A stretch of 64,000 bases of DNA from an uncultured virus (IMG/VR IMGVR_UViG_3300021092_000028) (IMGVR_UViG_3300021092_000028), one strand, 5' to 3'. Positions 25,585 through 42,194 are shown, counted from the stretch's first letter. Notes: generated from the sequence alone by a model not told the origin. Numbers and translations are program-made.

Positions 25585-26031
25585 TTATGAAAGGATGAAG
25601 TTTATTGGACTAAATCCTCCTCCTCCTCCTCCGCCGCCACCAGTTACATTTATTGTAGCGATACCTGATGATACTGTTACTGTGGAAATACCTGCACCTC
25701 TCAAATCAATAAAAGTTACACCAGTTCCTACTGTTACTCCAAATGTTCCAATACCAACACCATTGAATAAAGTTTGACCATTTAGTCGAATTGATGTTGC
25801 GGTAACTACACCAAGAATATTGGCATTTTGTAACGTAACCCCAGAAGAATGCAAGTCTGAACTTCCGATTCTAAAACCATTACTATGAATGGTCGTTGCT
25901 GAACCTACATTAATCTGAGTTCCACTTAGAGTAATTCCAGAACCAACATTTGCTGATGTCGCAGTTACAATACCAGCAAAGTTTGCTCCACCTTGAGCAT
26001 CACCGACAAGTTGTACTTTTGTTCTAGACAT
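25585..26031 (-). CDS. short tail-fibre-like protein
   Basis: GIVTATS repeats; shares GSATTIHxxGFRIGSSDLHS with 26105..27727. Confidence 0.7.
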   Translation of the reverse strand: MSRTKVQLVGDAQGGANFAGIVTATSANVGSGITLSGTQINVGSATTIHSNGFRIGSSDLHSSGVTLQNANILGVVTATSIRLNGQTLFNGVGIGTFGVTVGTGVTFIDLRGAGISTVTVSSGIATINVTGGGGGGGGGFSPINFILS

Positions 26032-26104: not shown

Positions 26105-27727
26105 TTATAGAGAATATGCTTTTACAAGAACATAAAGCCACCCATTACTCCCAGAGTTTCCAAAGTTATTAAAATAAATTGTCCTTCCACTGGTTGGTAT
26201 GTGTTGACTGGAATACCATACACCAAAGAATGGGCTGTATCCATCTGTTTCACCATTATAAGTAAGAGTAATTGCCTGACGAGTTAGTGTTCCAAATTGT
26301 CCTGATGGTTGCTGTCCCCTTGATCCAACCCAGTTTGTTTGATTTGTTAAAACGTTTCTACCCAAAACAAAATTCTGGTGATCGCTGGAATTAGCAGTTG
26401 CAAAAACATCAGCAAGAACATAACGAGCAGTTGAGGGTATGGTGGATGGATTTAGTGTAATTGCTTGTGAAGTTACACCACCAGTAAAAGACCATTCTGT
26501 TACTCCTGGTGTTACTTCCACCCATTGAATAATATTATCATTTCCTATTTTAATATTTCTCTTAACTTGTAAATCTCCATATGCAAGATCAATTGTCACA
26601 CCTGGACTATTAGTTCCACCACCAACAAAAGAAATACTGTTTGCTGGAACAGTATATTCACCAGACTCTGATAAAGATGAGTCAATATTTCTATGATATA
26701 TTCCCCAGTTCGAATTAGAGTCTGCTGGATCTCTGAATATCCAAAAATCTCTATCATTGGGTGATCCTTCAATTGCAACATTGGTAGAAGGATTATTAGT
26801 TTTATATGTTGTTAAAACTGTTCCATAAGGAACTGTAAATCTATTTGCTCTAGCAGTTCCATTCACATCAAGTTTTGCTTGTGGATTTGTGGTTCCTATG
26901 CCGATATTACCAGTTAACCTGTAGATATCATTACCAGTTCCTGCAGTCCATCTAGATGCAACAAAAGGACTTCCGTTTTGATTTAAAGTTCCCGTGAAGT
27001 TAATATCATTAAAAGTACCAATACCAGAAGAATTTAAATTGACAATACTTAATCCAGTTGAGTGTAAATCAGAACTTCCGATTCTAAATCCACTAGTATG
27101 AATGGTTGTAGCAGAACCTACATTAACCTGATCAGTTGTTCCATTAAGAGTAACTGAACTTGTTCCAATTGTAAGAATACCAGTAACTCTTGTGTTTCCT
27201 TCTACAATTAACGTTGTGTTTCCAGTTCCAATCTTGACAGTACCAAGAGCATTGGTAACTGTTGAAATTCCGGAAACATATAAATCTCCAGAGGTATTCC
27301 AAGAAGGCCCTCCAGTCGATAACTTAATTGGTGTTATAGAACCATCAGCAACAATTGCAGTTCCAATCGGTACAGCAGGGCCTAGTGAAACTCCGGAGAA
27401 TGTTAATCCAGAACTTGGTGCGGTTGTGAAAGTAATATTTGATGATGAAATTGTATAATCAGTAATTGGCGCTTGAACTACACCACCAAGAACAATTCTA
27501 AGTTGTTGTGCATTCGCAGGATAGAATGGTATTCCGGATTCTGTAAGTGCGAATGTTACAGTTGAATCATTAAAAGAACCAGAAATATCATCAAGAATTA
27601 CAATTTCTTTTGTTGATTGTGGAGTAAAACTTTGCCAGACATATCCATCCCACTTGAAAGAAAACCCAGAAGTGTTATCTGTATAAACTTCATTTACAGT
27701 AGGTGCGTCTGGAAAGTTAAGTGCCAT
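26105..27727 (-). CDS. tail fibre / receptor-binding protein
   Basis: MALNFP...WDG..W N-terminus, LDDISGSFN...LGGVVQ domain, GNIGIGTTNP, unique C-terminus. Confidence 0.8.
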   Translation of the reverse strand: MALNFPDAPTVNEVYTDNTSGFSFKWDGYVWQSFTPQSTKEIVILDDISGSFNDSTVTFALTESGIPFYPANAQQLRIVLGGVVQAPITDYTISSSNITFTTAPSSGLTFSGVSLGPAVPIGTAIVADGSITPIKLSTGGPSWNTSGDLYVSGISTVTNALGTVKIGTGNTTLIVEGNTRVTGILTIGTSSVTLNGTTDQVNVGSATTIHTSGFRIGSSDLHSTGLSIVNLNSSGIGTFNDINFTGTLNQNGSPFVASRWTAGTGNDIYRLTGNIGIGTTNPQAKLDVNGTARANRFTVPYGTVLTTYKTNNPSTNVAIEGSPNDRDFWIFRDPADSNSNWGIYHRNIDSSLSESGEYTVPANSISFVGGGTNSPGVTIDLAYGDLQVKRNIKIGNDNIIQWVEVTPGVTEWSFTGGVTSQAITLNPSTIPSTARYVLADVFATANSSDHQNFVLGRNVLTNQTNWVGSRGQQPSGQFGTLTRQAITLTYNGETDGYSPFFGVWYSSQHIPTSGRTIYFNNFGNSGSNGWLYVLVKAYSL

Positions 27728-27778
27728 TATAGTTTTTTAGGTATTTATGAAACAGTATTAGATGCTGCTTCTTGATTT
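27722..27778. repeat. 57-bp exact direct repeat, copy A (copy B 29425-29481)
   Basis: tgccattatagttttttaggtatttatgaaacagtattagatgctgcttcttgattt, read at both sites. Confidence 0.9.
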
Positions 27779-28017
27779 TTTTCTTCTACTGTTTTCACTA
27801 GACCCTCTTCATATGCAGCTAAAACCATATCTGGTTTGTTGGTTGCCGTGATGGGTTGATTATTATCTAACTTATGCTTTACATATAAGTCACAAATCTC
27901 ATCAATTGCAATACGAGCACGGTTGTGTGCTGCGTTATCAATCCAATCTTGTGGATCAGCAGCGACATATTCCATTGCTTTGGTTTCTGCTTCAGTTAGA
28001 GTAACGGTGTAATCCAT
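27745..28017 (-). CDS. 90-aa partner of C1q-domain fibre (copy 1)
   Basis: MDYTVTLTEAE...WIDNAAHNRARIAIDEI; close paralogue of 29448. Confidence 0.85.
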   Translation of the reverse strand: MDYTVTLTEAETKAMEYVAADPQDWIDNAAHNRARIAIDEICDLYVKHKLDNNQPITATNKPDMVLAAYEEGLVKTVEEKNQEAASNTVS

Positions 28018-28041
28018 ATTAAGTTCTTTTTTGAGTATTTA

Positions 28042-29430
28042 TTATCCTAATAACCAAGCGCCCCAAGATGATTCACGCCAATATCCAACTGCGGTTCCAT
28101 TATGCAGACCACCCTTTGGTCTTAATGTATCACCAGCAGCAAGGTCCATAACACCAGAACAAGACATCGCCATATAATTACTCCAAGCTTCATTAGTACC
28201 ATTAATTTGGTGAATAAACACTGTATTAGTATCATTTTTTGATATAAAAATTCTAATGTAACTATTTTGAACAAAGTTTGCAGTTTCCCATCTCATATTA
28301 AAAAATGTATAGTATTTTCCAGCAACTGGTGCTGTGAAGATGCCTGTTCCAGTGTTGTAATGATTTCCTGTGTTAAATCCACCTGTTTGAGAAGTTATAT
28401 TGAATAAAGTTCCAAGCATAGCAGTATCACCAGTTGCTGGTTGGTTAGCAGCACCAGCATTATCACTAGAAGCGAAAAAACCAGGTTGATAAGGCATCGT
28501 CACCCTACCAGAACTATCAATGATTATTCTATTATCACCATTATTATATAAAGTCATTGGAGTTGCTTCTGTATTTTGAATAGAGAAAACACCTCCCATA
28601 GTTTTTATAACACGACCTTTATAGTCTTGACCTGGATGAGTAAAGTCGATGTATGAACTGGCACTACTGTTGCGACAGCAAATGTCTAAAGCAAAATCAT
28701 TTGTCCCACCTTCACCAATATGAACTCCTGGTTGCGTTGGATAATTGTTTCTTGAACCTGCAACGTGGAGAGAAGAACTTGGATTTGTGGTTCCTATGCC
28801 CAGATTACCATCGGCAGTCAAACTCATTCTTAAATGAGCACTGCTAAGATTAGAAGTATTAGAACCACTATCACCAGCATAAAAATCTAATCTTTGTCCA
28901 ACACCAAATATATTAGCATTTCCAAATCCAACAGAATATCTTGGATTTGTTGCATCTGGAAAAACTAAACACGGAGTTGTATAGGATGTAGTACGGATGT
29001 GAAGTTTTGCCAGTGGATTATCGGTGCCTATGCCGACATTACCACTTGAATCTATACGGGCTCTTTCATTACCTGCTGCCCTAAAAGCAATAAAACCAGA
29101 AGCATTAGAACCATTTAATGTAAGTCCTGATGATGAAGTTTGTTCTACAGCAGTTGCACTTATTCTTAGTCCATCCGAACCATCTTGAATGTGTAATTTC
29201 TGTGCCGGTACTGTGGTTCCTATACCAATACTACCACTCACATAAGCACCACCAGTTACCTGTAATCTCTGACTTGCAGTACCTGTAGAAGTAGCAGAAC
29301 CAACGATTAAACTCGTGTCACCTAAACTTAAACTTGTGATGCCAGAAATAACCAGTCCTTCATCAGCAAAGGTGACTGTTCCGAGTCCACTTCTGTTCTT
29401 GATATTGTTTACTCTAAGTTCAGATGCCAT
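28042..29430 (-). CDS. tail fibre tip protein with C-terminal C1q/TNF-like domain
   Basis: QPGFFA...NTGNHYNTGTGIFTAPVAGKYYTFF...LAAGD...WGAWLLG. Confidence 0.82.
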   Translation of the reverse strand: MASELRVNNIKNRSGLGTVTFADEGLVISGITSLSLGDTSLIVGSATSTGTASQRLQVTGGAYVSGSIGIGTTVPAQKLHIQDGSDGLRISATAVEQTSSSGLTLNGSNASGFIAFRAAGNERARIDSSGNVGIGTDNPLAKLHIRTTSYTTPCLVFPDATNPRYSVGFGNANIFGVGQRLDFYAGDSGSNTSNLSSAHLRMSLTADGNLGIGTTNPSSSLHVAGSRNNYPTQPGVHIGEGGTNDFALDICCRNSSASSYIDFTHPGQDYKGRVIKTMGGVFSIQNTEATPMTLYNNGDNRIIIDSSGRVTMPYQPGFFASSDNAGAANQPATGDTAMLGTLFNITSQTGGFNTGNHYNTGTGIFTAPVAGKYYTFFNMRWETANFVQNSYIRIFISKNDTNTVFIHQINGTNEAWSNYMAMSCSGVMDLAAGDTLRPKGGLHNGTAVGYWRESSWGAWLLG

Positions 29431-29481
29431 TATAGTTTTTTAGGTATTTATGAAACAGTATTAGATGCTGCTTCTTGATTT
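29425..29481. repeat. 57-bp exact direct repeat, copy B
   Basis: Identical to 27722-27778. Confidence 0.9.
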
Positions 29482-29720
29482 CTTTGTACTGCTGTAGTGA
29501 CTAATCCCTCTTCAAAAGCCGCTAGAACCATATCTGGTTTGTTTGTAACTGTGATAGGAAGATTGTTATCTAGTTTATGCTTAACATAGATATCACAGAT
29601 TTCATCGATAGCAATACGTGCTCTGTTGGTTGCTGCATTATCAATCCATTCTTGTGGAGATGCAGTAACATATTCTAATGCTTTATTTTCTGCTTCGGTT
29701 AAAGTAATAGTATAATCCAT
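29448..29720 (-). CDS. 90-aa partner of C1q-domain fibre (copy 2)
   Basis: Paralogue of 27745. Confidence 0.85.
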   Translation of the reverse strand: MDYTITLTEAENKALEYVTASPQEWIDNAATNRARIAIDEICDIYVKHKLDNNLPITVTNKPDMVLAAFEEGLVTTAVQRNQEAASNTVS

Positions 29721-29740
29721 AAGTCTTTTTTGAGTATTTA

Positions 29741-30985
29741 TTATGATAGAAGAATACCACTAAAGTGGCAGTGTCCCATATAAACTTGCATACCCGAAAA
29801 ACTTTGCCAATCACCAACCGTAACATAGTCATTAGCACTTAATGAGAGTATTGCAGATTGTGACATTGCAGCACCAGAATCCATCTGAAGATTGTTATAA
29901 TTTAACCCATTTACTTTAATAACACATCTACCGGCCACGATGTTAACGAAAACAGACCATGTAATCAAATATCTTCCTGCGATTGGAGCAGTAAATCTAT
30001 AGTTTGTTGTGTTGAAATGATTTCCAATATTCGTTATAGCATCATTGAATGGTAAATCTGCTCCATTTGTAAGCGTATAGTTACTATTTGCTCCTCTTGC
30101 ATAAAAATATGGTTGAGATGCTTTCAAAACTCTACCGGAAGAATCTATTTGCATATACGGAGAACTGGTCCAACCACCATTCACGAAACGAAGTTGAGGA
30201 CCAGATAAACCATTACCTGTTGATACTATACTCCATTCATTACTTACTCCTGCTTGTTTACCTATCAAAGTAACCATAGATGATTGAATAGAACCTGTCG
30301 TGGTTGCCTTTATAATAGCATCATTGGAAGTTGCTATATCTAAAACTACACTCGGATTTGTGGTTCCTATACCAAGATTACCACTTCCAGTAACTCTTAA
30401 TCTTTCATTAGTTAAAACAGCACTATCATTAGAAAAACCATCTCTACCAACATTAATCGCAAAGTATTCAGTTCCCCAAACTCCTGCAAATCCACCAACT
30501 AAATCAACTGCTCTTCTTGGACCTCTATCTGATGGAAAGTTTGCAAATGTTGGATAAAAAGAATAAACACCTATTTCTCCACTTGTTACACCAATACCAG
30601 CTGCTGCAAATTGAGAAGCATTGGAAGATGCTGCATTTGTAGAAAGTCCTGCAATTACTCCAATTGACAGTGGATAAGGTGAATAAGTTGGATTTGAAAT
30701 TGCTCTAATTGCATTTCCACTTGTTACAAAAACATCAAGTTTAGTGGATGGATTTGTGATTCCTATGCCGACATTACCACTAAAGTATCCACCACCAGTA
30801 ACCTGAAGTCTTTGAGATGCAGTACCAGTAGAAGTAGCAGAACCTATAAGAACAGGACCATTAGTAAAAGTACCAATACCTGAGGCATTAATACTCGTAA
30901 CACCTGATAAATCCATTCCACTGATGGACAAACCACCATCAGATGCAGAGATAGTATCAGTTTGTCCGTTTATCTGAATTCCCAT
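29741..30985 (-). CDS. tail fibre tip protein with C-terminal C1q/TNF-like domain
   Basis: QPYFYA...NIGNHFNTTNYRFTAPIAGRYL...LSANDYV...FSGILLS. Confidence 0.82.
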   Translation of the reverse strand: MGIQINGQTDTISASDGGLSISGMDLSGVTSINASGIGTFTNGPVLIGSATSTGTASQRLQVTGGGYFSGNVGIGITNPSTKLDVFVTSGNAIRAISNPTYSPYPLSIGVIAGLSTNAASSNASQFAAAGIGVTSGEIGVYSFYPTFANFPSDRGPRRAVDLVGGFAGVWGTEYFAINVGRDGFSNDSAVLTNERLRVTGSGNLGIGTTNPSVVLDIATSNDAIIKATTTGSIQSSMVTLIGKQAGVSNEWSIVSTGNGLSGPQLRFVNGGWTSSPYMQIDSSGRVLKASQPYFYARGANSNYTLTNGADLPFNDAITNIGNHFNTTNYRFTAPIAGRYLITWSVFVNIVAGRCVIKVNGLNYNNLQMDSGAAMSQSAILSLSANDYVTVGDWQSFSGMQVYMGHCHFSGILLS

Positions 30986-31002
30986 TGTGGTTTTTTAGGT
31001 AT

Positions 31003-31263
31003 TTATGATAACCCAAGAAGATCTTTGAGTTCTTGTACTGTAAGTCCTGATGCCTCTAGTTTCTGTTGAGCAGTTAGAGGTTCTGGTTCGGGAATGGGGT
31101 CTGGTTCATCCGCCGGGAGCGGGCTGTTGCCGTCTTCCAGCCAGCGCAGGTATGCCTGATAGTCGGTGTTGGCAGGGTCGAAGGGGATGACTTTTGTGCC
31201 TTGCTCAGTAATACTCAAAACGTACTGCTGACCAAACCCGTCCCGTGAAAGTTTGTATGTCAT
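31003..31263 (-). CDS. tail fibre assembly-type small protein
   Basis: IPFDPANTDYQAYLRWLEDGNSPLPAD motif; ATGA-coupled to the fibre gene. Confidence 0.75.
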   Translation of the reverse strand: MTYKLSRDGFGQQYVLSITEQGTKVIPFDPANTDYQAYLRWLEDGNSPLPADEPDPIPEPEPLTAQQKLEASGLTVQELKDLLGLS

Positions 31264-32492
31264 AGTTCCGCACTCCAGTCAATCCAAGCGTTTGTTGTGT
31301 TGTTTGCGTTCAGGATAACTGCTTGACCACTTACCATCGTCGCTGTTATGTCGATTGTCATCTGTTTGTAATCAAGTGAATACTGAGACACTGGAGCCAA
31401 CGCTGTGATGTTTCCTGATGATTGTGAAGCGTTCCAGTCCGCCAAGGCTGAGTAACCGCCTACTGGTAACGCTCTCATTGATACAGGAAGTGAAACGATT
31501 GATTGCCCGTTTGTCGTTGAATAGGCTCGACCAACCCCAGCGTTGGCATAACTTGAGCCAGCTTTCAAACGGTAGTAATACCTCTGACACAACGCCAGCT
31601 CCTGCCCAAAGCTGCGCCGCTCAAAAACAGAAGCTACTGGACCTTCTTCTAACTGAACTTGTGTGATATCATACCAAACTGTATCTGCCGATGCGGTATT
31701 ACCTAGATTAGCAAACAGAAAACGAAGGTCAATATTTCCAGCATTTGACGGCACAGTAGCAGTTATACTGTATTTTGTCCAAGTAGTTGGTAAGGCACCA
31801 TTAGCAAGTTGTAAAGTTCCAACACCAGTAATCGGACTTGTTGTAGCAAAAGTCGCATCAACACTAGTTGGAAACCCAAAATATGCACTCCAGTTTCCGT
31901 ATGCGGTGGCGGTGCTACTACTTACTGTTGCCGCACTAAACTTGACCCAGAATGATGCCGTAACAGTTTTTCCACGTAAGTCATACATATTCACGTTTTC
32001 AATTTTTTGCCCCAGAGTAATTCTGGTTCCGCTTGCTGCTTGTGCTGTTGTGCTTGAACTTGCTCTTAAAGCATAACGAGTGACCATTCCAGAATAGGTA
32101 TCAGCAATAGAAACTCTCTGATGGCGAGCTTTTTGGTATTCTGCTGTTCCAGACCAACGATCTGCTAGATAAAAGTTAGTTGACCCATCAAGAAAAGTAA
32201 CAGAAGTTCCTCTTTGCCAAATTTCAAAATCTCCATTTATGATCCGGTTTTTTGATCCAGAAATAGGTCCATCATTAATACTAGTTACATAAGCAGTCGT
32301 AACACCAATAGTACTTACACCAACAATGGATGTTACATTAATACTATTAAAAGTACTAATACCACTGGTGTTATTCAGATTGACATTATTAAATGCTATA
32401 CCCGTTCCATTTACATTATAAAAGTCAATAGCAGTTCCAAGAGCCGTTAGACTTGTGATACCTGCGATACTGTTGGGTCTAATTACTGTCAT
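31260..32492 (-). CDS. tail fibre tip protein with carbohydrate-binding-like jelly-roll (NRIING...CQRYY family)
   Basis: KNRIINGDFEIWQRG...ADRW...VQLEEG...FERRSFGQELALCQRYY...SAEL. Confidence 0.82.
   Translation of the reverse strand: MTVIRPNSIAGITSLTALGTAIDFYNVNGTGIAFNNVNLNNTSGISTFNSINVTSIVGVSTIGVTTAYVTSINDGPISGSKNRIINGDFEIWQRGTSVTFLDGSTNFYLADRWSGTAEYQKARHQRVSIADTYSGMVTRYALRASSSTTAQAASGTRITLGQKIENVNMYDLRGKTVTASFWVKFSAATVSSSTATAYGNWSAYFGFPTSVDATFATTSPITGVGTLQLANGALPTTWTKYSITATVPSNAGNIDLRFLFANLGNTASADTVWYDITQVQLEEGPVASVFERRSFGQELALCQRYYYRLKAGSSYANAGVGRAYSTTNGQSIVSLPVSMRALPVGGYSALADWNASQSSGNITALAPVSQYSLDYKQMTIDITATMVSGQAVILNANNTTNAWIDWSAEL
32269..32327. repeat. 59-bp exact direct repeat, copy A (copy B 40362-40420)
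   Basis: ccatcattaatactagttacataagcagtcgtaacaccaatagtacttacaccaacaat at both sites. Confidence 0.9.
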
Positions 32493-32504
32493 TGTTCTTT
32501 CTCC

Positions 32505-32939
32505 TTATACGACAACATAATTACCATCAACAGTCAAAGTCCCTTCGATTGTTACTGGACCTGCCATTATGCCGTTAAAGTTCGTACCAATATAATGATT
32601 TCCTGAAAGAACATTATCAACAACAATCATTCCATTTGAAACATAAAGTCCCTTAAATGAATTGCCAGCACCTGTTAAGTTTGAATTATCTAGATTTGTA
32701 GTATTAACACCAACTGATTTACTTGTTGCAATACCAGCAGTATATGATGTCCAAGTTCCGCCAGCACCAGAAGAAAAAACAACTCCGTTTTGTGTTAAGT
32801 TTCCGGAAAAGTTGACATTACCTACAATATCTAACTTATAACCAGGAACAGTCGTACCAATTCCAACACGGTCATTGGCAATATCTACAAAGATATTATT
32901 ATCAGAAACTAAATTCGAAGTCTGGCGGGTCTTTCCCAT
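32505..32939 (-). CDS. short fibre adaptor-like protein
   Basis: Ends NGIMAGPVTIEGTLTVDGNYVVV; paralogous C-terminus to 40550. Confidence 0.7.
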   Translation of the reverse strand: MGKTRQTSNLVSDNNIFVDIANDRVGIGTTVPGYKLDIVGNVNFSGNLTQNGVVFSSGAGGTWTSYTAGIATSKSVGVNTTNLDNSNLTGAGNSFKGLYVSNGMIVVDNVLSGNHYIGTNFNGIMAGPVTIEGTLTVDGNYVVV

Positions 32940-32961
32940 TGGATATTATAGTTTTAGGTAT

Positions 32962-33405
32962 TTAGGTTCCTACAGGTCTCTCAAATGGAGTTCCTTCCTG
33001 AACAATTCCATCACCATCACCATCTCGTGCATTTGGATTATAACCTTCTGGTAGCATCCAAGACGTGGTATCTTCATCCCAATAATAGTAATCACCTTCT
33101 GGTTTAGGAGTTGGTGCTTCCCATTGACCAGTAGTTTCATTCAAAATCCAAGAAGGATATGGACTAGGACCTATAAACATATCAAGGTCTTCGTTGTAAG
33201 TATCACCTTGTCCAGCATACTTACCCCTAAAGTTTCCGCGATATGAGGTTCTTACCCATCTACGGTCTGCACCGTGGTGAGTATGAAGATGGTTTACACC
33301 AAGTTCTTCTACTTCATTACCATTCTCATCGGTGATAATCTCATTGTCCATATAGACAACATAGATTACCTCATTATTTTCATTAAGTTCTGCGTAGTGT
33401 GCCAT
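32962..33405 (-). CDS. partner protein of glycine-rich adhesin (MAxFA family, copy 2) with a DxDxDG tail
   Basis: MAHYAELNENN...WVRTSY...; C-terminal RDGDGDGIVQEGTP. Confidence 0.8.
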   Translation of the reverse strand: MAHYAELNENNEVIYVVYMDNEIITDENGNEVEELGVNHLHTHHGADRRWVRTSYRGNFRGKYAGQGDTYNEDLDMFIGPSPYPSWILNETTGQWEAPTPKPEGDYYYWDEDTTSWMLPEGYNPNARDGDGDGIVQEGTPFERPVGT

Positions 33406-33426
33406 AAGATTTTTTATGATTATTTA

Positions 33427-33513
33427 TTAAACGTATGGATATCTGATTGCAACGATACCGAAACCACCTTTGCCTACGACTGTAGTGGAATTTGTATATG
33501 ATTTTATACCCAT
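33427..33513 (-). pseudogene. internally deleted remnant of a glycine-rich adhesin gene (28-aa mini-ORF)
   Basis: Manual translation MGIKSYTNSTTVVGKGGFGIVAIRYPYV*; the C-terminus matches the family end motif GGSGIVxxRY. Confidence 0.7.
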
Positions 33514-33517
33514 TTTT

Positions 33518-34819
33518 TTATACCAAATATCTAAAAATAACAATTCCACTTTGTCCAGACGATCCACTAGATGGTTGTGATGCAGATCCAGATCCACCAT
33601 TTCCTACAGTTGCTGGTAAAACTGGCCATGGATTGTATGGTCCAGGTGCCCTTCCCCCCGCTGTCGGATTATTTGGTGCAGCACCATTACCACCTGCATA
33701 AGTTGCAGATGTTGATGCTATTGGATTTGCAAAATTACTGCCACCATATTGAGTCTGGTTTCCAGACCCTCCTCCCTGAGTTCCATTTGACACACTTATT
33801 CCACCCCCACAACCTCCCCATCCTCCTCCATCTCCGGGAAAGTTTAATCCCGAAGTACCAGTTGAACTATCTGCTCTATAAACATTTCCTGCAGCACCAC
33901 CACCTCTAGATGGAGTTTCATTGGCGTTACCTTCATTTGATCCACCACCACCCGCACCACCACCGCCAGCAACATAATATGTTGATCCAGCATAAACTCC
34001 GGACCAACCTCCTCCACCACCACCGCCACCAGAAGTACCACCAGGTCCTGCATTTCCACCAGTTCCACCACCATTTGATCCCGCAGTACCTCCACCAGTA
34101 TTAGCAACGGCACTTAAACCACCACCGCCGCCTCCACCGACTGCTGCGGTAAAGGAACCAGAACTTAGAGTAAATGTTGCTAAAGATGCACCACCACCTC
34201 CTCCACCACCTCCAGGAGGAACATCCCATCCCCCACCTCCACCTCCTCCTCCAATAGAAAGGATTTCAACTGATTTAGAGCCCACAACAGTAAAAGTTCC
34301 GGGTGTAGTAAAAACGTGATAGATGTATCCATCACCAGGAGTTGATGGATTTCCACCAGATGCGGTAAATGATAAAGAGGTATCTCCAATAGTAACTGTA
34401 GAACTCGTAGCAACAATAGTTCCACTTGTACTATCAATTCTAACTTGTAACTGAAATGATTCTGAACCTTCGGTTGTTAAGTCATTTGCTAATGTTAATG
34501 CAACTGAACCAGTTCCGCCAGTAACATTAAAAGAACCACTAGTAGCACCTCCGCTAAAATCAGAGGCGTTAATAGTTCCCGAAACAGTATTCAGTGTCCA
34601 ATATAACGTAGTGCCATCATCGACATAATTAGTTGTTATTGTAAATGTAACTGTTGAACCTTCGTTTACTGAAGATGTTGAAGGTGATACTGAGTATGTT
34701 CTATATGTTAATGGTATTGCACCTCCACCACGAAAAAAAGTATTTCTAAAATAACTCAGTAAGTGTCCGTCACTTCGGTTATTAAATCCCTTATTATTAT
34801 TCGAACTTCTTGAACCCAT
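33518..34819 (-). CDS. glycine-rich adhesin with an Ig/Calx-beta-like insert
   Basis: SVNEGSTVTFT...NDLTTEGSESF domain, then PGDGYIYHVFT, polyglycine, GQSGIVIFRY. Confidence 0.78.
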   Translation of the reverse strand: MGSRSSNNNKGFNNRSDGHLLSYFRNTFFRGGGAIPLTYRTYSVSPSTSSVNEGSTVTFTITTNYVDDGTTLYWTLNTVSGTINASDFSGGATSGSFNVTGGTGSVALTLANDLTTEGSESFQLQVRIDSTSGTIVATSSTVTIGDTSLSFTASGGNPSTPGDGYIYHVFTTPGTFTVVGSKSVEILSIGGGGGGGGWDVPPGGGGGGGGASLATFTLSSGSFTAAVGGGGGGGLSAVANTGGGTAGSNGGGTGGNAGPGGTSGGGGGGGGWSGVYAGSTYYVAGGGGAGGGGSNEGNANETPSRGGGAAGNVYRADSSTGTSGLNFPGDGGGWGGCGGGISVSNGTQGGGSGNQTQYGGSNFANPIASTSATYAGGNGAAPNNPTAGGRAPGPYNPWPVLPATVGNGGSGSASQPSSGSSGQSGIVIFRYLV

Positions 34820-34831
34820 TGTTTTTCAACC

Positions 34832-35239
34832 TCAAATATCAGTATCGCCAATGATTTGATAATTTACAATGCTGCCAATACCAGTTCCACCTGATGTTGG
34901 TGCTGTAATTTCAACAACAATCTTATCAGAACCAGTTAAAACCAATGGATAATTGGTCTCAAAGAAGAATGTTTCATTAGAAGCAAGGTCTACTCTTGCC
35001 AATCTATATGCAGTGACAGCCAAACCAGTTACTGGAGTTGATGTACCTGTAGGATAAATGTAGAGAGAAGAAGTGGCAGTTCCAAGACCGGTGTTATGCA
35101 TAATAACACTACGGATATAAGTCGTGGATGCAATACCAACTCCACCAGCAGTTGAAGTAACTCCAACAGTAAAAATACCAACAGTGGCAATACCAGTTAC
35201 TGATTGTATATTCAAAAGTTCAGTTCTTTTAAGTGCCAT
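34832..35239 (-). CDS. small beta-rich structural protein preceding a glycine-rich adhesin
   Basis: Positional and pattern counterpart of 45035..45406. Confidence 0.7.
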   Translation of the reverse strand: MALKRTELLNIQSVTGIATVGIFTVGVTSTAGGVGIASTTYIRSVIMHNTGLGTATSSLYIYPTGTSTPVTGLAVTAYRLARVDLASNETFFFETNYPLVLTGSDKIVVEITAPTSGGTGIGSIVNYQIIGDTDI

Positions 35240-35259
35240 CTTATTGCTTTTTAAGTTAT

Positions 35260-36123
35260 TTAGGAAAATAATGCAGCATCGAGTTCATTAAACCCCGTAG
35301 GTATATTTAGATTCGTTAGATTTGCTCCAGAACCACTGAAAGAACTTGCAGTGACTATTCCAGTTACTTTTACATCTCCAGTAACTGTAAGTTTTGATGT
35401 TGGATTTGTGGTTCCAATACCAACATTAGAAAGTGTATGAATACCTACAATAGTATAACTCCATCTATCATCACCAGCAACACCTCTACCCATCGTGTAT
35501 TCAACAATATCAATGATGTCTCCTAGTGATGCTGCTTCAGTTAATACAACGGAAGTTCCACTAGTAGCTGTAAATTCCGTTGGACTTAATCTGACACCAT
35601 TAAGATATACATCGATAAATCCAACAGTATAAGGAGTGGTAAATGTTGTCTGTCCTGCAGTTGCTGTAAATGCTGTTTCATTCTTAGCAGCAACTAATCC
35701 ACCACCTTCATTAAATGGTGCAGAGTCAACCCATACTGCAGTTGAACCAATACCTAAAGTAACCTCATTATAGTAAACAAAGGTTCTTGCATAATCAATA
35801 TGATAGAACAAATCACCATTTGATGGAGATGCAGGAAACTGTGTTCCAATTCCAATTGCACCAGAACTTCCTCCGCCTCCTTCAAAGAAGATGGTTACGA
35901 TACCAACATTAGAATCATAAAAAGTTGTAGAAACCCCAGCACCTTTTAGGTCAATAAAAGTAACACCATAACCAACAACACCACCAGTGGTTCCAATACC
36001 AATACCAGATTGTGGTAATCCTGTTAGGTTACTTCCGTCTCCATAAAAGGCAGTAGCAGTTACAACACCAGCAACTGTGATATTAGTATCAACTGATTGT
36101 GATTGTAACTTTGTAAGTGACAT
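35260..36123 (-). CDS. short tail fibre protein
   Basis: FTATAGQTTF...IDVYLNGVRL domain; SNVGIGTTNP. Confidence 0.75.
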   Translation of the reverse strand: MSLTKLQSQSVDTNITVAGVVTATAFYGDGSNLTGLPQSGIGIGTTGGVVGYGVTFIDLKGAGVSTTFYDSNVGIVTIFFEGGGGSSGAIGIGTQFPASPSNGDLFYHIDYARTFVYYNEVTLGIGSTAVWVDSAPFNEGGGLVAAKNETAFTATAGQTTFTTPYTVGFIDVYLNGVRLSPTEFTATSGTSVVLTEAASLGDIIDIVEYTMGRGVAGDDRWSYTIVGIHTLSNVGIGTTNPTSKLTVTGDVKVTGIVTASSFSGSGANLTNLNIPTGFNELDAALFS

Positions 36124-36144
36124 TATATCTTACTTTTTAGGTAT

Positions 36145-37932
36145 TTATCTGACTAACCACTCCTCTACATTTTCATCAATGTCTTGCATCTTAATCCAAC
36201 GATTTCCGATGACTTGACCTTTACGAACTCTAAGTTTTCCAACAAGACCTACAGCATCCCATTCTTGCCTATCTTCTCTTGAAACATATTCTTGGTCCGG
36301 ATCGTATTCTGGATTTAACTTACGATGAGTGAAACGATTACCTTTGTCATCGTGAGTTTTAATTGTTGTCTCAGTAGGAACTGTAATGTCTTCTGGTAAG
36401 TTCCAGTCCTCATAAGAATGCTCTTTACCATCTTCATCAGTCCACTCTACAACATTATGTTCTTCGAAGATATAACGATTGAATGAATCTTTTAAGTATT
36501 TCTCTGCCCACTTATTCCAAGAAGTATCACCAACGACTGATGGATTACCTGAGATTACTCCGATGATATCTTCACCTTCTTCAGCAATCTTAATCTTATT
36601 TCCAACTAAGGATACTGTATAACCTACACGGTCCTCATTGTTGGCGTTTCCATCTGCCCATTCGAACATTTCTGCATAGTCAGCGCCACCGCCGTTCCAA
36701 GAGCCGTCTGCATATGCTTGACCATCACCACGAAGGTTGAACTCCACGTCTCCAAGATTTCCCGACCAACCAACAAAAAACGAATATGCAATATTTGCAG
36801 CACGGTCTACATTTGCTGCTATAACTCTTGTGGCAAGACTTGCATTTGTAGACCTTAACCACATCGTGTTATCGTTTTGAGTTTGATAAAACTCATGAAA
36901 AGCACCTGCTGTATCTTGATAACCTCCAATATTTGATGCTTTGAAATATCCACCATATGTAATTCTTGCTTTCTCTGTTGGCAAGGAGTTTTCATTTGAA
37001 TTAAAAGTGGCACCAAAAATTATATTTGCCCCACTACTAAGATTGTTAATCTCAGGAACTCTTTGGAACCAAATACCGGCAGCATAAGAAGGATTTGCAA
37101 CGTCTCTATAACAATCTGCAAATATTCCCGAATGTACAAAAATAGCATCTGTTTGATTTCTATTCGAAAAAACAATACTTGGTACTGCTGCGACTGTTCC
37201 TGCACTTGAAGATTTATCTAAATTTAGACCTCCCTTTATATTTACGGATGAAATTGAACCAATACCAATATTACCTGAAGAATTAAGAACCATCCTGAAA
37301 TAATTCGTTCCATTATCAAAAAGATAAAAACTATTAGGTGAAATAGTTTCTGCCGAACCTCTTGCACCAACTTCCCAATCACTTCCATTTGTTAGGAATT
37401 TTAAAGTTGTTCGGTCAGTATTTGTAGTAGATTCAAGGGCAAGAATATCTCCAGAACTAACAATATGAGTTTTATATGAAGGATTAGTAACTCCAACACC
37501 CAAACTACCACTCACATAAGCACCACCACCTACTTGAAGTTTTTGATTGGAAGTTCCTGTTGCTGCTGATGTACCTACAAGAGTATTACCACCATAAGCA
37601 TTTAATGTTATATCTTTTTTAACAGTATTTGCTTTATTTGCAGATTCAATTGAAAAAGTATTACCAGAATTGTCTGCATAAAGTGCAAGGTATGCATCTC
37701 CAGCAAGTCCTCCTGTACGAAAAACTCCAAATACATCAAGTGTATATGCTGGATTTGTGGTTCCTATACCAATACTACCACTCACATAAGCACCACCAGT
37801 CACTTGTAATGTCTGACTTGCGGTTCCTGTGGTTGATGCACTTCCAATCAGAACTTCTCCACCAGTTCCTAAATCAATGTTAGAACTTGTACCTGATGGA
37901 TTTTGAAGTTTAATTGTCTTTAAAGTACTCAC
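36145..37932 (-). CDS. tail fibre/spike with C-terminal peptidase G2-type autocleaving chaperone (copy 1)
   Basis: GADYAEMFEW...IIGVISGNPS..GD...KLNPEYDP...EWDAVGLVGKL; GTG start. Confidence 0.82.
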   Translation of the reverse strand: MSTLKTIKLQNPSGTSSNIDLGTGGEVLIGSASTTGTASQTLQVTGGAYVSGSIGIGTTNPAYTLDVFGVFRTGGLAGDAYLALYADNSGNTFSIESANKANTVKKDITLNAYGGNTLVGTSAATGTSNQKLQVGGGAYVSGSLGVGVTNPSYKTHIVSSGDILALESTTNTDRTTLKFLTNGSDWEVGARGSAETISPNSFYLFDNGTNYFRMVLNSSGNIGIGSISSVNIKGGLNLDKSSSAGTVAAVPSIVFSNRNQTDAIFVHSGIFADCYRDVANPSYAAGIWFQRVPEINNLSSGANIIFGATFNSNENSLPTEKARITYGGYFKASNIGGYQDTAGAFHEFYQTQNDNTMWLRSTNASLATRVIAANVDRAANIAYSFFVGWSGNLGDVEFNLRGDGQAYADGSWNGGGADYAEMFEWADGNANNEDRVGYTVSLVGNKIKIAEEGEDIIGVISGNPSVVGDTSWNKWAEKYLKDSFNRYIFEEHNVVEWTDEDGKEHSYEDWNLPEDITVPTETTIKTHDDKGNRFTHRKLNPEYDPDQEYVSREDRQEWDAVGLVGKLRVRKGQVIGNRWIKMQDIDENVEEWLVR

Positions 37933-37956
37933 GATTATCTCTTATTTTTTAGGTAT

Positions 37957-39297
37957 TTATCTGACCAACCATTCTTCAACAGTTGCACTAATATCCTGCA
38001 TCTTAACCCAAGTTGACTTTATAAGTTGACCTTTACGAACTCTAAGTTTGCCCATCATACCAACAGCATCCCATTCAGGTCTTTGCTCTCTTGAAATATA
38101 TTCTTGGTCTGGATTGTATTCTGGATTTAACTTTCGATGAGTAAAACGAACACCATTATCATCGTGAGTCTTTATTAAAGCATTTTCTGGAACTACAATA
38201 TCATTAGGTAAGTTCCAGTCCTCATAAGAATGTTCTTTACCATCTTCATTAGTCCACTCTATGACATTATGTTCTTCGTAAATATACCGATTAAAATCAT
38301 CCCTTAGATACTTTTGTGACCATTTGTTCCAGGCAGTATCACCAAGAACAGAAGGATTGCCAGAAACTACACCAATAATATTTTCGCCTTCTTCAGCAAT
38401 CTTAATCTTATTTCCTACGAGAGATACAGTATAACCTACCCTATCTTCATTATTAGGGTTGCCATCTGCCCATTCGAACATTTCAGCATAGTCAGCACCA
38501 GTAACATAGTTGTTATCACCAAAGACAGTTCCAGCACCATCAACTCTAAATTCAGTATCTGCTGTACTTGCATTAAATGCGAAGAAATAATGGAAAGCAG
38601 TAGATGCACTTCTGTTTGCTTGTGAAAAAACAATTAGTTCTGGATAAGAGGCACTATCTGCGTGGAAAGCCGCCGTTCTAGAATTGCTTGTTTGATAGAC
38701 AAAAAACTTTTGCCCTGCTGATGCACCACCAATACCGAAGTTACCACTTACATCTATACGTGCTCTTTCAGAATTTGAAGTATAAAAAGTAATAGGTGCT
38801 GCTTCTGATGTAAGTAAACTAAGTTCCCCAGTTCCTCTATGTGCTAATCTAGATAATGCATTTGCCCCAGTGTTATCTCTAATAATTCTTAAACCATAAT
38901 CTGTATATGTAGTATCTCCTACAAAATCAATATATGCATATGCATTTGTTGTTTGACCTCTTCCAAGTTCAATAACACTATTACTTCCATAATCAGTAAA
39001 TCTTGCTTTTCCGGCAACATCTAATTTAAATTCGGAATCTGGATTTGTAAGACCTACACCAAGATTTCCACTAACATAAGCACCACCAGTCACCTGTAAT
39101 GTCTGATTTGCAGTACCAGTAGAAGTACCTGAACCAATCACTACAGGAGCATTTGCAAAACTTGTAATACCAGTAGTGCTCTGAACAATAATACTTCCAG
39201 TTGTTGATGGTAAAGTGATTGTATTATTTGCCGCCGTTGCCGCTGCTTGGATTTCTACATATCCACTTGAAGTACCGTTAAGACGTAATTTAGACAC
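37957..39297 (-). CDS. tail fibre/spike with C-terminal peptidase G2-type chaperone (copy 2)
   Basis: C-terminal domain closely paralogous to 36145; GTG start. Confidence 0.82.
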   Translation of the reverse strand: MSKLRLNGTSSGYVEIQAAATAANNTITLPSTTGSIIVQSTTGITSFANAPVVIGSGTSTGTANQTLQVTGGAYVSGNLGVGLTNPDSEFKLDVAGKARFTDYGSNSVIELGRGQTTNAYAYIDFVGDTTYTDYGLRIIRDNTGANALSRLAHRGTGELSLLTSEAAPITFYTSNSERARIDVSGNFGIGGASAGQKFFVYQTSNSRTAAFHADSASYPELIVFSQANRSASTAFHYFFAFNASTADTEFRVDGAGTVFGDNNYVTGADYAEMFEWADGNPNNEDRVGYTVSLVGNKIKIAEEGENIIGVVSGNPSVLGDTAWNKWSQKYLRDDFNRYIYEEHNVIEWTNEDGKEHSYEDWNLPNDIVVPENALIKTHDDNGVRFTHRKLNPEYNPDQEYISREQRPEWDAVGMMGKLRVRKGQLIKSTWVKMQDISATVEEWLVR

Positions 39298-39334
39298 TTT
39301 ATTTCAGTTACTTTTTAGGTATTTATGATAAGCA

Positions 39335-40528
39335 TTATAGTTCTGCAGAATAAGCAATTGCATCTGGCATTAGTTGTCCTGCAAGATTTGCCCCATAGTT
39401 ATTTGATATTGTAAGAGTCACATACGAATTAGAAACTACTTCAGTGATAGAAGTAATATTGTAAAAAGCAAGTGCTGGTCGGTGTATTTTTTGTGTTCCA
39501 TTTATTAAACTTACATTTGGAACAGTTCTCAATGGATGCCTAAATCCAACTGGTGCGACAAAGGCATTATTTAGTTCGTTCATTGCACCTTGAGAAGAAA
39601 AATTGGTTTGATAATACCTCTGACACAATCGCAACTCATCTCCAAAACTTCGTCTCTCAAACTCAGTCGCAGTAGGCCCAACCTCTAACTGAACACCAGT
39701 CAGGAAGAAGTTATTACCAGCAGTTGCTAAAAAGTTCACTTGCCCGACTGCTCTGTTTGCGGATGTAGTATGCCAGGTGGTGCCTAGTGTTCCTCCAGAA
39801 TAAGTAGAACCTGCTGCTAAAAACCAAGCAACATAAAGCGAAGCACCATTATCATTATCAAAAACACCAGTTGTATCAGCAGGATATGTTAATGTCTTCT
39901 TTTCCCAGGTGTTTGCGGTATCAATTGTATAAGATTTTGATACCTGACGATTATTATCATTATCATAAAGTTCAGCAATATAAGTTCCTGTTAGACTCGA
40001 ACGAACCCAGAAGGATAGTGTAAATTGTTGAGCATTTGCAGTTCCTTTTTTAAATCCCTGAACATTAAAACCTTCTATGAGTTGAGTTATGAGCGCATAT
40101 TGACCTGCTGCTAATGATGCATCTGCAGTGGTGACTCTGTAATGAAGAGCACTACTAAATCCATCGGCATAAGCATTACCACCGACAGTGGAGTTCATTG
40201 TGGTCTGACCTGCAGACACAGCACCATCCATACTGTGCCCTATTGCAAATCTATCAGTCGTATAAGCACCACTAGTTGTGGTTCCAGCAGTTCCAGTAAA
40301 TCCTCTCTGATTGACCACCATAGAACCGTTGATGATGACATTACGAGAACCACCTAATTGACCATCATTAATACTAGTTACATAAGCAGTCGTAACACCA
40401 ATAGTACTTACACCAACAATACTTGTAGTATCAATATCTACGTTATTACCTACCTTAATATCACTTGTACCAATAGTAACTGCTGTACCAACTGTAATAC
40501 CAGTAGAACCGTCTAATCTTATCGGCAT
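39335..40528 (-). CDS. tail fibre tip protein (NxIING...CQRYY family)
   Basis: RNVIINGSMVVNQRG...DRF...GVQLEVG..ATEFERRSFGDELRLCQRYY...SAEL. Confidence 0.82.
   Translation of the reverse strand: MPIRLDGSTGITVGTAVTIGTSDIKVGNNVDIDTTSIVGVSTIGVTTAYVTSINDGQLGGSRNVIINGSMVVNQRGFTGTAGTTTSGAYTTDRFAIGHSMDGAVSAGQTTMNSTVGGNAYADGFSSALHYRVTTADASLAAGQYALITQLIEGFNVQGFKKGTANAQQFTLSFWVRSSLTGTYIAELYDNDNNRQVSKSYTIDTANTWEKKTLTYPADTTGVFDNDNGASLYVAWFLAAGSTYSGGTLGTTWHTTSANRAVGQVNFLATAGNNFFLTGVQLEVGPTATEFERRSFGDELRLCQRYYQTNFSSQGAMNELNNAFVAPVGFRHPLRTVPNVSLINGTQKIHRPALAFYNITSITEVVSNSYVTLTISNNYGANLAGQLMPDAIAYSAEL
40362..40420. repeat. 59-bp exact direct repeat, copy B
   Basis: Identical to 32269-32327. Confidence 0.9.
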
Positions 40529-40549
40529 TTCTTATTACTTTTTGAGTAT

Positions 40550-41179
40550 TTAGACTACAACCAGTGTAGAACCACTTTGAACCGTTACTGTGTATCCAGT
40601 TCCAACAGTAATCGGTCCAATCATCAGTGCATTCTTTCCTGCAGGTACAGTAACGTTTGCATTAATATCTGCATCCATCATGTAAACACCATCACTGATT
40701 GAGATAGTTCCAACAACTTGAAGAGCCCCTTCAGATGATGCAGTACCAGTGACTGATGCTGTATTGATTCCTACAAGACCACTAAAAGTTGCAGCAGCAC
40801 CTACAACATTATTAACTTCAATGTCAGGAATACCAGTAAGTCCTTGTGCAAGAGTTGCAATACCAGCAGTAGAAGCATAAGATGCATCACCACCACCAGT
40901 AATACTAATATCAACTACATTACCATTAATAGCAAAAGTATTACCAAGTCCAATGAAGTTTAATGTGGTAATACCAGTTCCAATGACAGTTCCTGCTGAT
41001 TGGATACCAACACCACTCGAAAATGCAGAACCCCCTTGATATAAGGTTCCACTAAAACTTACATCCCCATTTACATCTAATGTATACTGAGGAATCGTAG
41101 AACCTATACCAACTTTATTGCCTGTTGCTGTGATGTAAGATATTCCACCAACATCGGACAGGTTTCTTGCTCTTGACAT
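40550..41179 (-). CDS. short fibre adaptor-like protein
   Basis: Starts MSRARNLSD; ends NALMIGPITVGTGYTVTVQSGSTLVVV. Confidence 0.72.
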   Translation of the reverse strand: MSRARNLSDVGGISYITATGNKVGIGSTIPQYTLDVNGDVSFSGTLYQGGSAFSSGVGIQSAGTVIGTGITTLNFIGLGNTFAINGNVVDISITGGGDASYASTAGIATLAQGLTGIPDIEVNNVVGAAATFSGLVGINTASVTGTASSEGALQVVGTISISDGVYMMDADINANVTVPAGKNALMIGPITVGTGYTVTVQSGSTLVVV

Positions 41180-41233: not shown

Positions 41234-41434
41234 TCATTCTTCTGTTTCTTCTACTTCTTCTTTTTCTGGTTCTGGAAGTGTAACACCAACTTGTTGGAGA
41301 TATTCTAATGCTCCTTGAATCTTAAGAGCCATTTCTCGTTTTGAAACAATCGCTCTATCAAGTTCTTGAATTTCTTGAATGAGAGTCTTCTGTTGTTCCA
41401 GAAGATTTGCTAGATGTCCTTGTTGTTCGTTCAT
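41234..41434 (-). CDS. small coiled-coil protein
   Basis: 66-aa helical ORF with TAAATA upstream. Confidence 0.7.
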   Translation of the reverse strand: MNEQQGHLANLLEQQKTLIQEIQELDRAIVSKREMALKIQGALEYLQQVGVTLPEPEKEEVEETEE

Positions 41435-42174: not shown

Positions 42175-42194
42175 TTTATTACCTCCATCGTGAT

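Follow-up and report, generated by a model that had tools for sequence, protein, structure and literature searches.

A candidate docking domain at the ends of short tail-fibre genes, and putative two-piece fibres, in an uncultured T4-like cyanomyovirus

We analysed a stretch of 64,000 nucleotides (nt) from an uncultured virus (IMG/VR IMGVR_UViG_3300021092_000028), called the window throughout, in which two blocks of tail-fibre genes lie between positions 26105 and 41179. Each block consists of a short gene, termed the adaptor, followed in transcription order by three genes for fibre tips, and both blocks with their neighbours belong to a single, tightly packed minus-strand string of structural genes with intergenic gaps of -4 to 112 nt. 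A first-pass annotation had read each adaptor as a docking hub that is extended by its three tips; the N-termini it quoted for the six tips (MPIRLDG, MSKLRLNG and MSTLKTIKL in one block; MTVIRPN, MGIQING and MASELRV in the other) are indeed found behind the adaptors on the minus strand, at the positions given below, two of them with GTG starts. Two elements carry the argument: the “socket”, a C-terminal domain of about 75 residues that ends both adaptors, and the “plug”, the first about 15-20 residues of a tip, conserved from Met1.

In block 1, adaptor 1 (209 amino acids (aa); 40550-41179) encodes a short fibre segment. Its N-terminal module is of MSRARNLS.../GIGS type, and its socket lies at residues about 134-209 (nt 40553-40780; with E 1.7e-35, a hidden Markov model (HMM) matches the open frame at residues 139-215). 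Tip 1 (397 aa; 39335-40528) starts 21 nt past adaptor 1, carries the plug MPIRLDGSTG (class A), matches phrog_4492 “tail fiber” (E 3e-54) and has a C-terminal receptor-binding-type domain with the pattern NxIING...CQRYY...AEL. It is followed by tip 2 (446 aa, GTG start; 37957-39297; plug MSKLRLNGTSSG, class B) and tip 3 (595 aa, GTG start; 36145-37932; plug MSTLKTIKLQN, class C). Both contain the self-cleaving chaperone domain Peptidase_G2 (PF11962, cut-off 25 bits; at the C-terminus of tip 2 with E 7.2e-42 and 143.8 bits, in tip 3 with E 8.1e-41 and 140.3 bits), and they are 63% identical across their last 277 aa. Four genes, encoding a 287-aa fibre-like, a 135-aa, a Gly-rich 433-aa and a 147-aa protein, separate the blocks; the first of these (35260-36123, minus strand) is without a socket, ends ...LDAALFS, has modules in common with the 1185-, 688- and 524-aa fibres, and has a 420-aa counterpart in a near relative.

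Block 2 opens with adaptor 2 (144 aa; 32505-32939), which has an N-terminal MGKTRQTSNL.../GIGTT module and a socket at residues 63-144 (nt 32508-32753) that is 77% identical to the C-terminus of gp001 of phage S-SRM01. Tip 1 of this block (410 aa; 31260-32492; plug MTVIRPNSIAGITS, “MT” class) starts 12 nt past adaptor 2 and matches phrog_4492 (E 1.3e-49), again with an NxIING...CQRYY...AEL domain. Tip 2 (414 aa; 29741-30985; plug MGIQINGQTD, an A-like class) and tip 3 (462 aa; 28042-29430; plug MASELRVNNIKNRSG, a C-like class) each carry a C1q domain (Pfam PF00386, cut-off 23.7 bits; E 6.9e-8 and 33.2 bits, E 1.9e-6 and 28.5 bits, respectively). The block is interleaved with three small open reading frames (ORFs): an 86-aa ORF behind tip 1 (31003-31263, with a 4-nt overlap with the stop of that tip), and two paralogous 90-aa ORFs, 82% identical, behind tip 2 (29448-29720) and tip 3 (27745-28017). 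A fourth fibre gene, for 540 aa (26105-27727), comes next; it is without a socket, has an N-terminus of proximal-anchor type (MALNFP...) and probably encodes a separate one-piece fibre, and proteins with the same N-terminus carry sockets in two other contigs (L071 and L283).

The pairing of tips that the first-pass annotation had described holds: all four Peptidase_G2 and C1q domains lie above the Pfam gathering cut-offs, and the first tips of the two blocks, both phrog_4492, are 36% identical over 304 aa and have the NxIING...CQRYY motifs in common. For the jelly-roll fold that the first-pass annotation gave to this first-tip domain, the only lead is an ESM cluster at 0.93, 23% of whose members carry CBM_4_9; a profile search of the PDB with the first tip gave no match. 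The small ORFs follow the tips in kind: homologues of the 86-aa ORF trail ...AEL-type tips in S-SRM01 (gp003) and in contig L117, and those of the 90-aa ORFs trail C1q-like tips, both in the near relative and in S-SRM01 (gp010). Because the 86- and 90-aa families track the C-terminal type of the tip, we read them as candidate helpers, which probably act in folding or assembly of one tip type each.

The two adaptors end alike. Their shared terminal pattern, GP(I/V)T...TV...VVV, had been noticed before, and the similarity now proves to be homology: an HMM built from the relatives of either C-terminal domain picks out the other adaptor (E 2.6e-6 and 7.1e-11), and a profile-profile comparison of the two domains (hhalign) gives 96% probability and E 4.3e-9. 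The N-terminal modules are homologous as well (BLASTP, 50% identity over 44 aa, E 3.5e-10). Out of 1.84 billion, 223 cluster representatives match the final 82 residues of adaptor 2 at E<=1e-3, and for 108 of these E is <=1e-10. Among the best 150 of the 223, the match ends <=3 aa from the C-terminus in 137; the 13 non-terminal cases look frameshifted or fragmentary. Proteins that carry the socket are 61-1135 aa long and differ widely at their N-termini. For adaptor 1, 228 homologues were found, the majority with the same terminal motif, and confirmed loci in IMG/VR number 145 of adaptor-2 type and 348 of adaptor-1 type. Searched with both adaptors and three other socket proteins at E<=10, Pfam contains no family for the socket, one unrelated sub-threshold match aside; searches of NCBIfam, and of the PDB by sequence and by profile, found no match either. 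The nearest named cluster for the socket in the ESM Atlas, “T4 gp9/10 N-terminal”, scores 0.83, below the above-chance level, and was not used. The socket is a domain family that is widespread, unnamed and strictly C-terminal. In the near relative (L015, 3568-4485), adaptor 1 is 305 aa long rather than 209 aa and has the same two ends, with an insertion of repeated AGIATYAT-like units in its middle; an insertion so placed implies that shaft length varies between constant ends.

What follows the socket is also constant. Among 80 loci obtained with an adaptor-2-type socket, 78 have a downstream ORF, and in 67/78 the next gene, 11-44 nt downstream, begins with an MT-type plug. The 11 exceptions start with MASEIRV, with MGIQING or MGIVIAG, with MSTLRINN, or with MKYDIT, and three of these four types are classes of the other tips of the window; plugs of MGIQING type, for example, stand directly behind sockets in L076 and L082 and behind MT tips in L253 and L254. 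The reverse selection gives the same picture: when 40 loci were selected by the plug alone, 38 had enough upstream DNA, and in 37/38 an ORF ending in a socket (31 of adaptor-2 type, 6 of adaptor-1 type) stops 4-43 nt upstream of the plug. The plug-selected contigs mostly overlap the socket-selected set; they include 5 new contigs with upstream DNA, and the socket is there in 4/5. Behind adaptor-1-type sockets, the next gene starts at -16 to +45 nt, and its short N-terminus is similar in kind to these plugs (MPVKLNSTGGGS, MPIKLNGSTSGY, MAIQINGNG, MSTLRVSNIE and MSVSINGAGS among them), with close likenesses of the MSKLRLNG and MGIQING tips of the window. All plug classes of the window occur directly behind sockets in other contigs. 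The synteny that the first-pass annotation had proposed to survey in relatives is present for the adaptor and its first tip, and a socket followed by a first plug is, across these contigs, the constant element of the arrangement.

The codon positions at this boundary differ in how far they have diverged. Among five relatives, identity in the socket is ~0.8 at first, 84-94% at second and 50-59% at third codon positions, and in the plug ~0.7 at first, 70-85% at second and 30-50% at third positions. The divergence of third positions implies that the boundary is conserved at the level of protein and not of DNA. A recombination linker as the sole cause of the boundary was considered and rejected on the same ground, the divergence of third positions. 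After dereplication, 107 distinct junctions remain, 99 with a next gene; clusters of sockets and of plugs are associated across them with an adjusted mutual information of 0.29 versus at most 0.13 in 2000 shuffles, a value that is inflated by common descent.

Sockets and plugs also occur in minimal and chimaeric forms. Four contigs (L098, L113, L117 and L082) contain tandem pairs of 79-aa ORFs that consist of a plug and a socket only, joined by an ATGA overlap and followed by a tip of 390-520 aa. Elsewhere, an MTVIRPN plug is fused to an adaptor-1-type socket (P0093), an MT plug to an adaptor-2-type socket (P0184), and plugs of MSKVKLTG and MSTLKT types to sockets (P0218 and P0119, respectively); in L019, a chain runs from a socket protein through an MT-plug protein that itself ends in a socket to an MSTLR tip. 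These forms fit pieces that would clip together end to end, and a role as receptor-binding knobs would be difficult to reconcile with them.

Comparison with the near relative, whose adaptor 2 is 98% identical, shows which parts of the tips are exchanged. The gene order is that of the window, and each tip retains 60-80 residues at its start (the first 40 are 80-97% identical), whereas the C-terminal part differs in 4/5 tips: the MTVIRPN tip is C1q-like rather than of NxIING type; the MSKLRLNG tip, the counterpart of tip 2 of block 1, keeps its first 80 aa and is without Peptidase_G2; and the MASE tip has a different, coiled-coil-rich C-terminus. In the larger set, the NxIING...AEL domain is found behind at least 12 plug classes, and tips that follow sockets range from 125 to 1222 aa with unrelated C-termini. 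The near relative also contains an 85-aa remnant (L003, 12784-13041) that begins as a MASE-type tip (MVSELRVNNIKNRSG) and then breaks off; it resembles a decayed third tip of block 2.

The same boundary is present in four cultured phages. The tail fibre of P-SSP7, PSSP7_036, ends in a socket (profile E 6.9e-8, in the last 40 residues) and is followed by genes 037 (MPITLNGSG), 038 (MSQLKLTAD) and 039 (MATLNATNLKH). Over their first 14 residues, a short span for such a comparison, the three tips of block 1 have 6, 6 and 5 identities to these genes in the same order and 1-4 in any other, which is suggestive of one order of plug classes in block 1 and in P-SSP7 genes 37-39. In freshwater S-SRM01 (Kyanoviridae), gp001 has an adaptor-2-type socket at its end and precedes gp002 (MTIITPTG, NxIING-type), gp004 (MASEIRVN) and gp006, and gp007 has an adaptor-1-type socket at its end and precedes gp008, gp009 and gp011. 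Podovirus S-SBP1 has a socket at the end of gp40, its 1166-aa tail fibre, and gp41 (MTVKINGTN) starts 2 nt later; at the S-MbCM7_083/084 boundary, a giant fibre protein with a terminal socket precedes two paralogous genes with small ORFs. According to Schwartz and Lindell, P-SSP7 genes 37-39 form a paralogous cassette that immediately follows the tail-fibre gene; virions contain gp37 and gp38, at a place that is unknown, and resistance-breaking mutations were found in genes 37 and 38 (PMC5520035). These data are the only experimental anchor for the view that proteins encoded behind a socket are virion proteins of host recognition.

The number of tips behind a socket is far less constant than the first one. 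Scanning with 10-kilobase (kb) flanks gave 85 distinct runs, of which 26 are cut by contig ends and 59 are complete; the complete runs have 0 tips in 6 cases, 1 in 22, 2 in 22, 3 in 6, 4 in 2 and 5 in 1, counts that halt at the first large plug-less gene and may therefore be too low. An MT tip alone (15 runs) and an MT tip followed by a MASE-type tip (15 runs) are commonest. In the set with 4-kb flanks, a MASE- and/or MGIQ-type tip follows in 28/45 units of socket and MT tip, and the order socket, MT, MGIQ, MASE recurs in L103, L107 and L109. The order of block 2 is, on these contigs, a recurrent synteny and not a rule, and a strict rule of one adaptor and three tips was rejected, only 6/59 complete runs having exactly three. 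Of the docking hub proposed in the first-pass annotation, the part that stands is the adaptor end, which behaves as a predicted docking site should in both directions of selection and in its protein-level conservation; the repeated count of one plus three is no grammar. A further recurrent unit was seen in seven contigs (L113, L117, L268, L285, L294, L298 and L300), where a protein of 98-259 aa ending in a ...DGTWVIV-type socket is followed by three paralogous tips of 160-215 aa (MGTLNL, MASELRV and MSELRTN types) and an ORF of 121-125 aa (MKYDI...); the near-equal lengths of the three tips make a heterotrimeric tip conceivable.

We consider it fairly probable that the adaptors and tips form two-piece fibres that are joined socket to plug and have swappable host-binding ends. 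The two short genes would encode short fibre segments whose last ~75 residues are the socket; the gene directly behind the socket would encode a receptor-binding tip whose first 15-20 residues are the plug; and the plug of the tip, presumably a trimer, would dock on the socket of the adaptor, presumably also a trimer. The distal, host-binding half could then be exchanged by recombination with the joint left untouched. For the second and third tips, with plugs of other classes, the likeliest partner would be that same hub, where they would occupy additional sites or compete for a single one; this is the least certain step of the model. The Peptidase_G2 spikes would bring their own self-cleaving chaperone domain, and the 86- and 90-aa ORFs would probably supply tip-type-specific folding helpers. 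We read the socket as a docking site because the junction is conserved both from the socket (67/78) and from the plug (37/38) and is under protein-level selection. In other phages, the plug classes of the later tips sit directly behind sockets.

Several observations weigh against such a joint. The AlphaFold2 monomer model of the socket is poor (pLDDT, the predicted local distance difference test, 56). One contig, L207, has an MT plug without an upstream socket, the sole exception among the 38, and in 6/59 complete runs no plug gene follows the socket; the gene that starts at +2 nt behind the adaptor-1-type socket of L103-L110 encodes an N-terminus of proximal type instead of a plug. One and the same socket subtype (...DGNYVVV), on MPYIGRDL... 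carriers, precedes MT, MSTLR or MGIQ plugs, which implies that there is no strict one-to-one code between socket and plug. Only two sockets were found for at least six tips with plugs, whether in the window or in a 137.5-kb record that contains it; that record is incomplete (about 64%), and the rest of the genome may contain additional sockets. Genes of one operon may, moreover, remain neighbours even if their products do not bind each other, and common descent links the related loci.

How the three tips of a block would relate to one adaptor can be explained in more than one way. An adaptor trimer might hold all three at once, through non-equivalent plug classes A, B and C, to give a branched or tripod-like end, and the unit of one adaptor and three tips would then be the true module. 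The order of the block 1 plugs, which seems to be that of P-SSP7 genes 37, 38 and 39, speaks for this arrangement, as do the other cases of a socket with three tips (both S-SRM01 sets, gp001 with 002/004/006 and gp007 with 008/009/011, and contigs L113, L117, L240, L270, L285, L292, L294, L298 and L300) and the repeated order of socket, MT, MGIQ and MASE in three contigs. A MASE-type tip also stands directly behind the socket in L044, where an MT tip intervenes in the related L080 and L198, which implies that the MASE tip is independent of the MT tip. Yet runs of one and two tips are the commonest, exactly three being found in only 6/59; the plug classes are assigned on 4-6 identities per 14 residues; and the tips of one window block are very unequal in length and in C-terminal domain. 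We hold simultaneous occupation of three slots to be possible and rather unlikely. Its broader form, a universal three-way hub in which ancient plug classes A, B and C would have been kept from T7-like podoviruses (P-SSP7 37-39) to T4-like cyanomyoviruses, is to us just as tentative; if true, each fibre end could present up to three different, independently swappable receptor-binding heads, and the window would encode two hubs and six heads of four domain types.

Competition offers a different account, in which the three tips of a block would be alternatives for one axial site on the socket, so that each fibre carries one tip, virions are mosaic and host range is broadened. It draws on the presence of every window plug class directly behind sockets elsewhere, on the single socket subtype that precedes different plug classes in different contigs, and on the ratio of two sockets to six tips. 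Simple competition for one site, however, leaves unexplained why position-specific plug classes seem to keep their order across distant phages, and the ratio itself is uncertain, given the incomplete record. We regard this account as doubtful.

It is also conceivable, though improbable, that there is no docking at all, the socket being a distal cap or a small receptor-binding knob, the tips reaching the baseplate independently, and the boundary reflecting operon order or the border of a recombination cassette. Fibre genes are mosaic and have many modules in common, no plug follows the socket in 6/59 complete runs, and physical binding, stoichiometry and branching are inferred here from genes and sequence. 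This explanation has to contend with an adjacency that is near-obligate both ways; with a socket that is 77% identical to that of the freshwater phage S-SRM01 while tips swap between near relatives; with third codon positions that have diverged, so that the conservation is not at the DNA level; and with the tandem 79-aa proteins of plug and socket, which are implausible as receptor-binding knobs. Least probable is a socket that acts as an assembly factor, transiently nucleating the trimerisation of the N-terminus of the next product with no stable joint in the virion: the tight boundary (gaps of 2-44 nt or overlaps) suggests coupled translation and phage fibres often require helpers, but some of the proteins that bear a socket are long fibres with a structural role, among them the tail fibre proper of the podoviruses P-SSP7 and S-SBP1, and separate small helper-like ORFs already trail the tips.

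Alongside the two-piece fibres that we favour, a second type of joint may occur. The 287-aa protein between the blocks ends ...LDAALFS and a 148-aa protein (25585-26031) ends ...INFILS; in L010 (4888-8252), a 1030-aa fibre ends ...DITSSLFS and is followed 20 nt on by a protein with an adaptor-2-like start (MGRTRQSADLVSDNNIF). A regular-expression search for C-terminal ...LF[ST] followed by an adaptor-type N-terminus returned this one clear case only. If such a joint were real, the adaptors would themselves be plugged onto another fibre.

The window covers the tail-fibre region of a T4-like cyanomyovirus that is divergent and uncultured. The UvsW-type helicase encoded there matches 419 phage records, at best with 57% identity, and the names of all 419 are Synechococcus, Prochlorococcus, Cyanophage or Marine virus; near-identical DNA was sought among cultured phages and none was found. 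The IMG/VR record is a 66-kb fragment estimated to be 31% complete, and the identical sequence is contained in the 137.5-kb record. Scans of the window for promoters, terminators and T4 late promoters gave nothing above shuffles, and the two blocks are for that reason not demonstrable as separate transcription units. A perfect sigma-70 consensus (TTGACA, 17 nt, TATAAT; 12/12) was noted at 42889-42861 on the minus strand, just upstream of two genes of 2OG-Fe(II) oxygenase type (42195-42830 and 41461-42222) in the middle of the fibre gene string.

Other features of the string touch the blocks more loosely. A gene pair for a Gly-rich protein (phrog_2295) and then a small protein (phrog_7759) is present three times on the minus strand of the window (43970-45019 with 43572-43955; 33518-34819 with 32962-33405; 15933-16946 with 15460-15927); the phrog_7759 copies are 44-47% identical to one another, and one copy of the pair immediately precedes adaptor 2. 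Adaptor 1 is closely preceded, also on the minus strand, by a 66-aa ORF (phrog_20934; 41234-41434), and 70-76-aa ORFs resembling it (MATDQQNHLKS, MTDQQKHLQQV) recur among the fibre genes of L239, L240 and L244. Past the 540-aa fibre, a 111-aa minus-strand protein (25217-25552) that adjoins the 148-aa fibre-like protein matches phrog_3304, “L-shaped tail fiber protein assembly” (E 2e-21), and an LtfC-like beta-sandwich in Pfam with 22.1 bits, below the cut-off of 27.

If the proposed joint is true, it would indicate where in the virion host-range proteins of the P-SSP7 gp37/gp38 type sit, allow receptor-binding proteins (RBPs) to be recognised by a simple sequence rule in thousands of uncultured aquatic phage contigs, and account for the exchange of host-binding heads while fibre assembly continues unharmed; the socket, as an unannotated domain family, would then deserve a Pfam entry and a structure.

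The long tail fibre of phage T4, in which gp34, gp35, gp36 and gp37 are separately encoded segments joined end to end, is a parallel in design. There, gp36 (221 aa) is a connector encoded just before the distal receptor-binding gp37, to which it is joined, and before the helper gp38, a gene order like that of the window. T4 differs in having one tip per connector. A socket profile searched against the whole T4 genome at E<=10 gave no match and recovered the window sockets as positive controls; the C-termini of T4 gp35 and gp36 have no sequence similarity to the socket, and their translations contain no socket motif. One adaptor trimer with three receptor-binding trimers has a precedent in the baseplate of lactococcal phage TP901-1, where BppU holds three BppL trimers; unlike the tips of the window, all three of those trimers are of the same protein. 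Cyanomyoviruses were described in a 2010 review as having no recognisable T4 fibre genes g34, g35, g37, g10, g11 and g12 (PMC2984593).

Similar in logic are the anchor and branch RBP systems with short conserved N-terminal docking peptides, known from K1-5/SP6, from Klebsiella podophages and from the Menlow group (PMC6872550); examples are the adaptor gp37 of K1-5/K1E/SP6 with two tailspikes, KP32/KP34/K11, and G7C gp66 with gp63.1 (PMC6872550, PMC13352976). In these systems, as proposed here, the first protein is fixed to the virion and provides the site at which RBPs encoded downstream dock by a short N-terminal peptide, the C-terminal enzymatic or binding parts are exchangeable, and truncated “anchor only” first proteins are known. 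Secondary RBPs that are encoded downstream of an anchor and share such a conserved short peptide at the N-terminus are what we found in both blocks. The docking peptide has 7-11 residues in K1-5/KP34 as described there (PMC6872550), whereas the plugs have 15-20. The docking site in those descriptions is a T4gp10-like domain, to which the socket has no detectable sequence relation, and no such domain was found in the adaptors at the sequence level (Pfam, E<=10); the socket is, furthermore, strictly C-terminal and found in myo- and podoviruses of aquatic hosts. Binding has been validated experimentally in the anchor and branch systems and is deduced from sequence here.

Serial RBP genes are also known from Ackermannviridae, where TSP1-4 of CBA120 are several different RBPs encoded one after another that form one branched complex (PMC7506556, PMC11414711), and the Menlow model has one anchor followed by three proteins with conserved N-terminal peptides (PMC6872550). 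As those sources portray them, the assembly domains of CBA120 and Menlow are N-terminal modules of ~170 residues related to T4 gp10, in contrast to the 15-20-residue plugs and C-terminal socket of the window. The T7-like podovirus P-SSP7 has a tail fibre that ends in the same socket family and three downstream genes whose plug classes, over a short span of residues, seem to stand in the order of block 1; its tips, however, are paralogues of 191-198 aa with one fold, whereas those of the window have 397-595 aa and three types of C-terminal domain. The first-pass annotation had not recognised the arrangement as a described system. That judgement stands for the docking domain, as no description of a socket domain or a socket-plug boundary in cyanophages was found in a literature search that left out subscription journals and supplements, and does not stand for the arrangement as such, which the anchor and branch systems and the P-SSP7 37-39 cassette precede. 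Our comparison suggests that what is new here is the docking domain itself, set within an anchor and branch logic that was already known.

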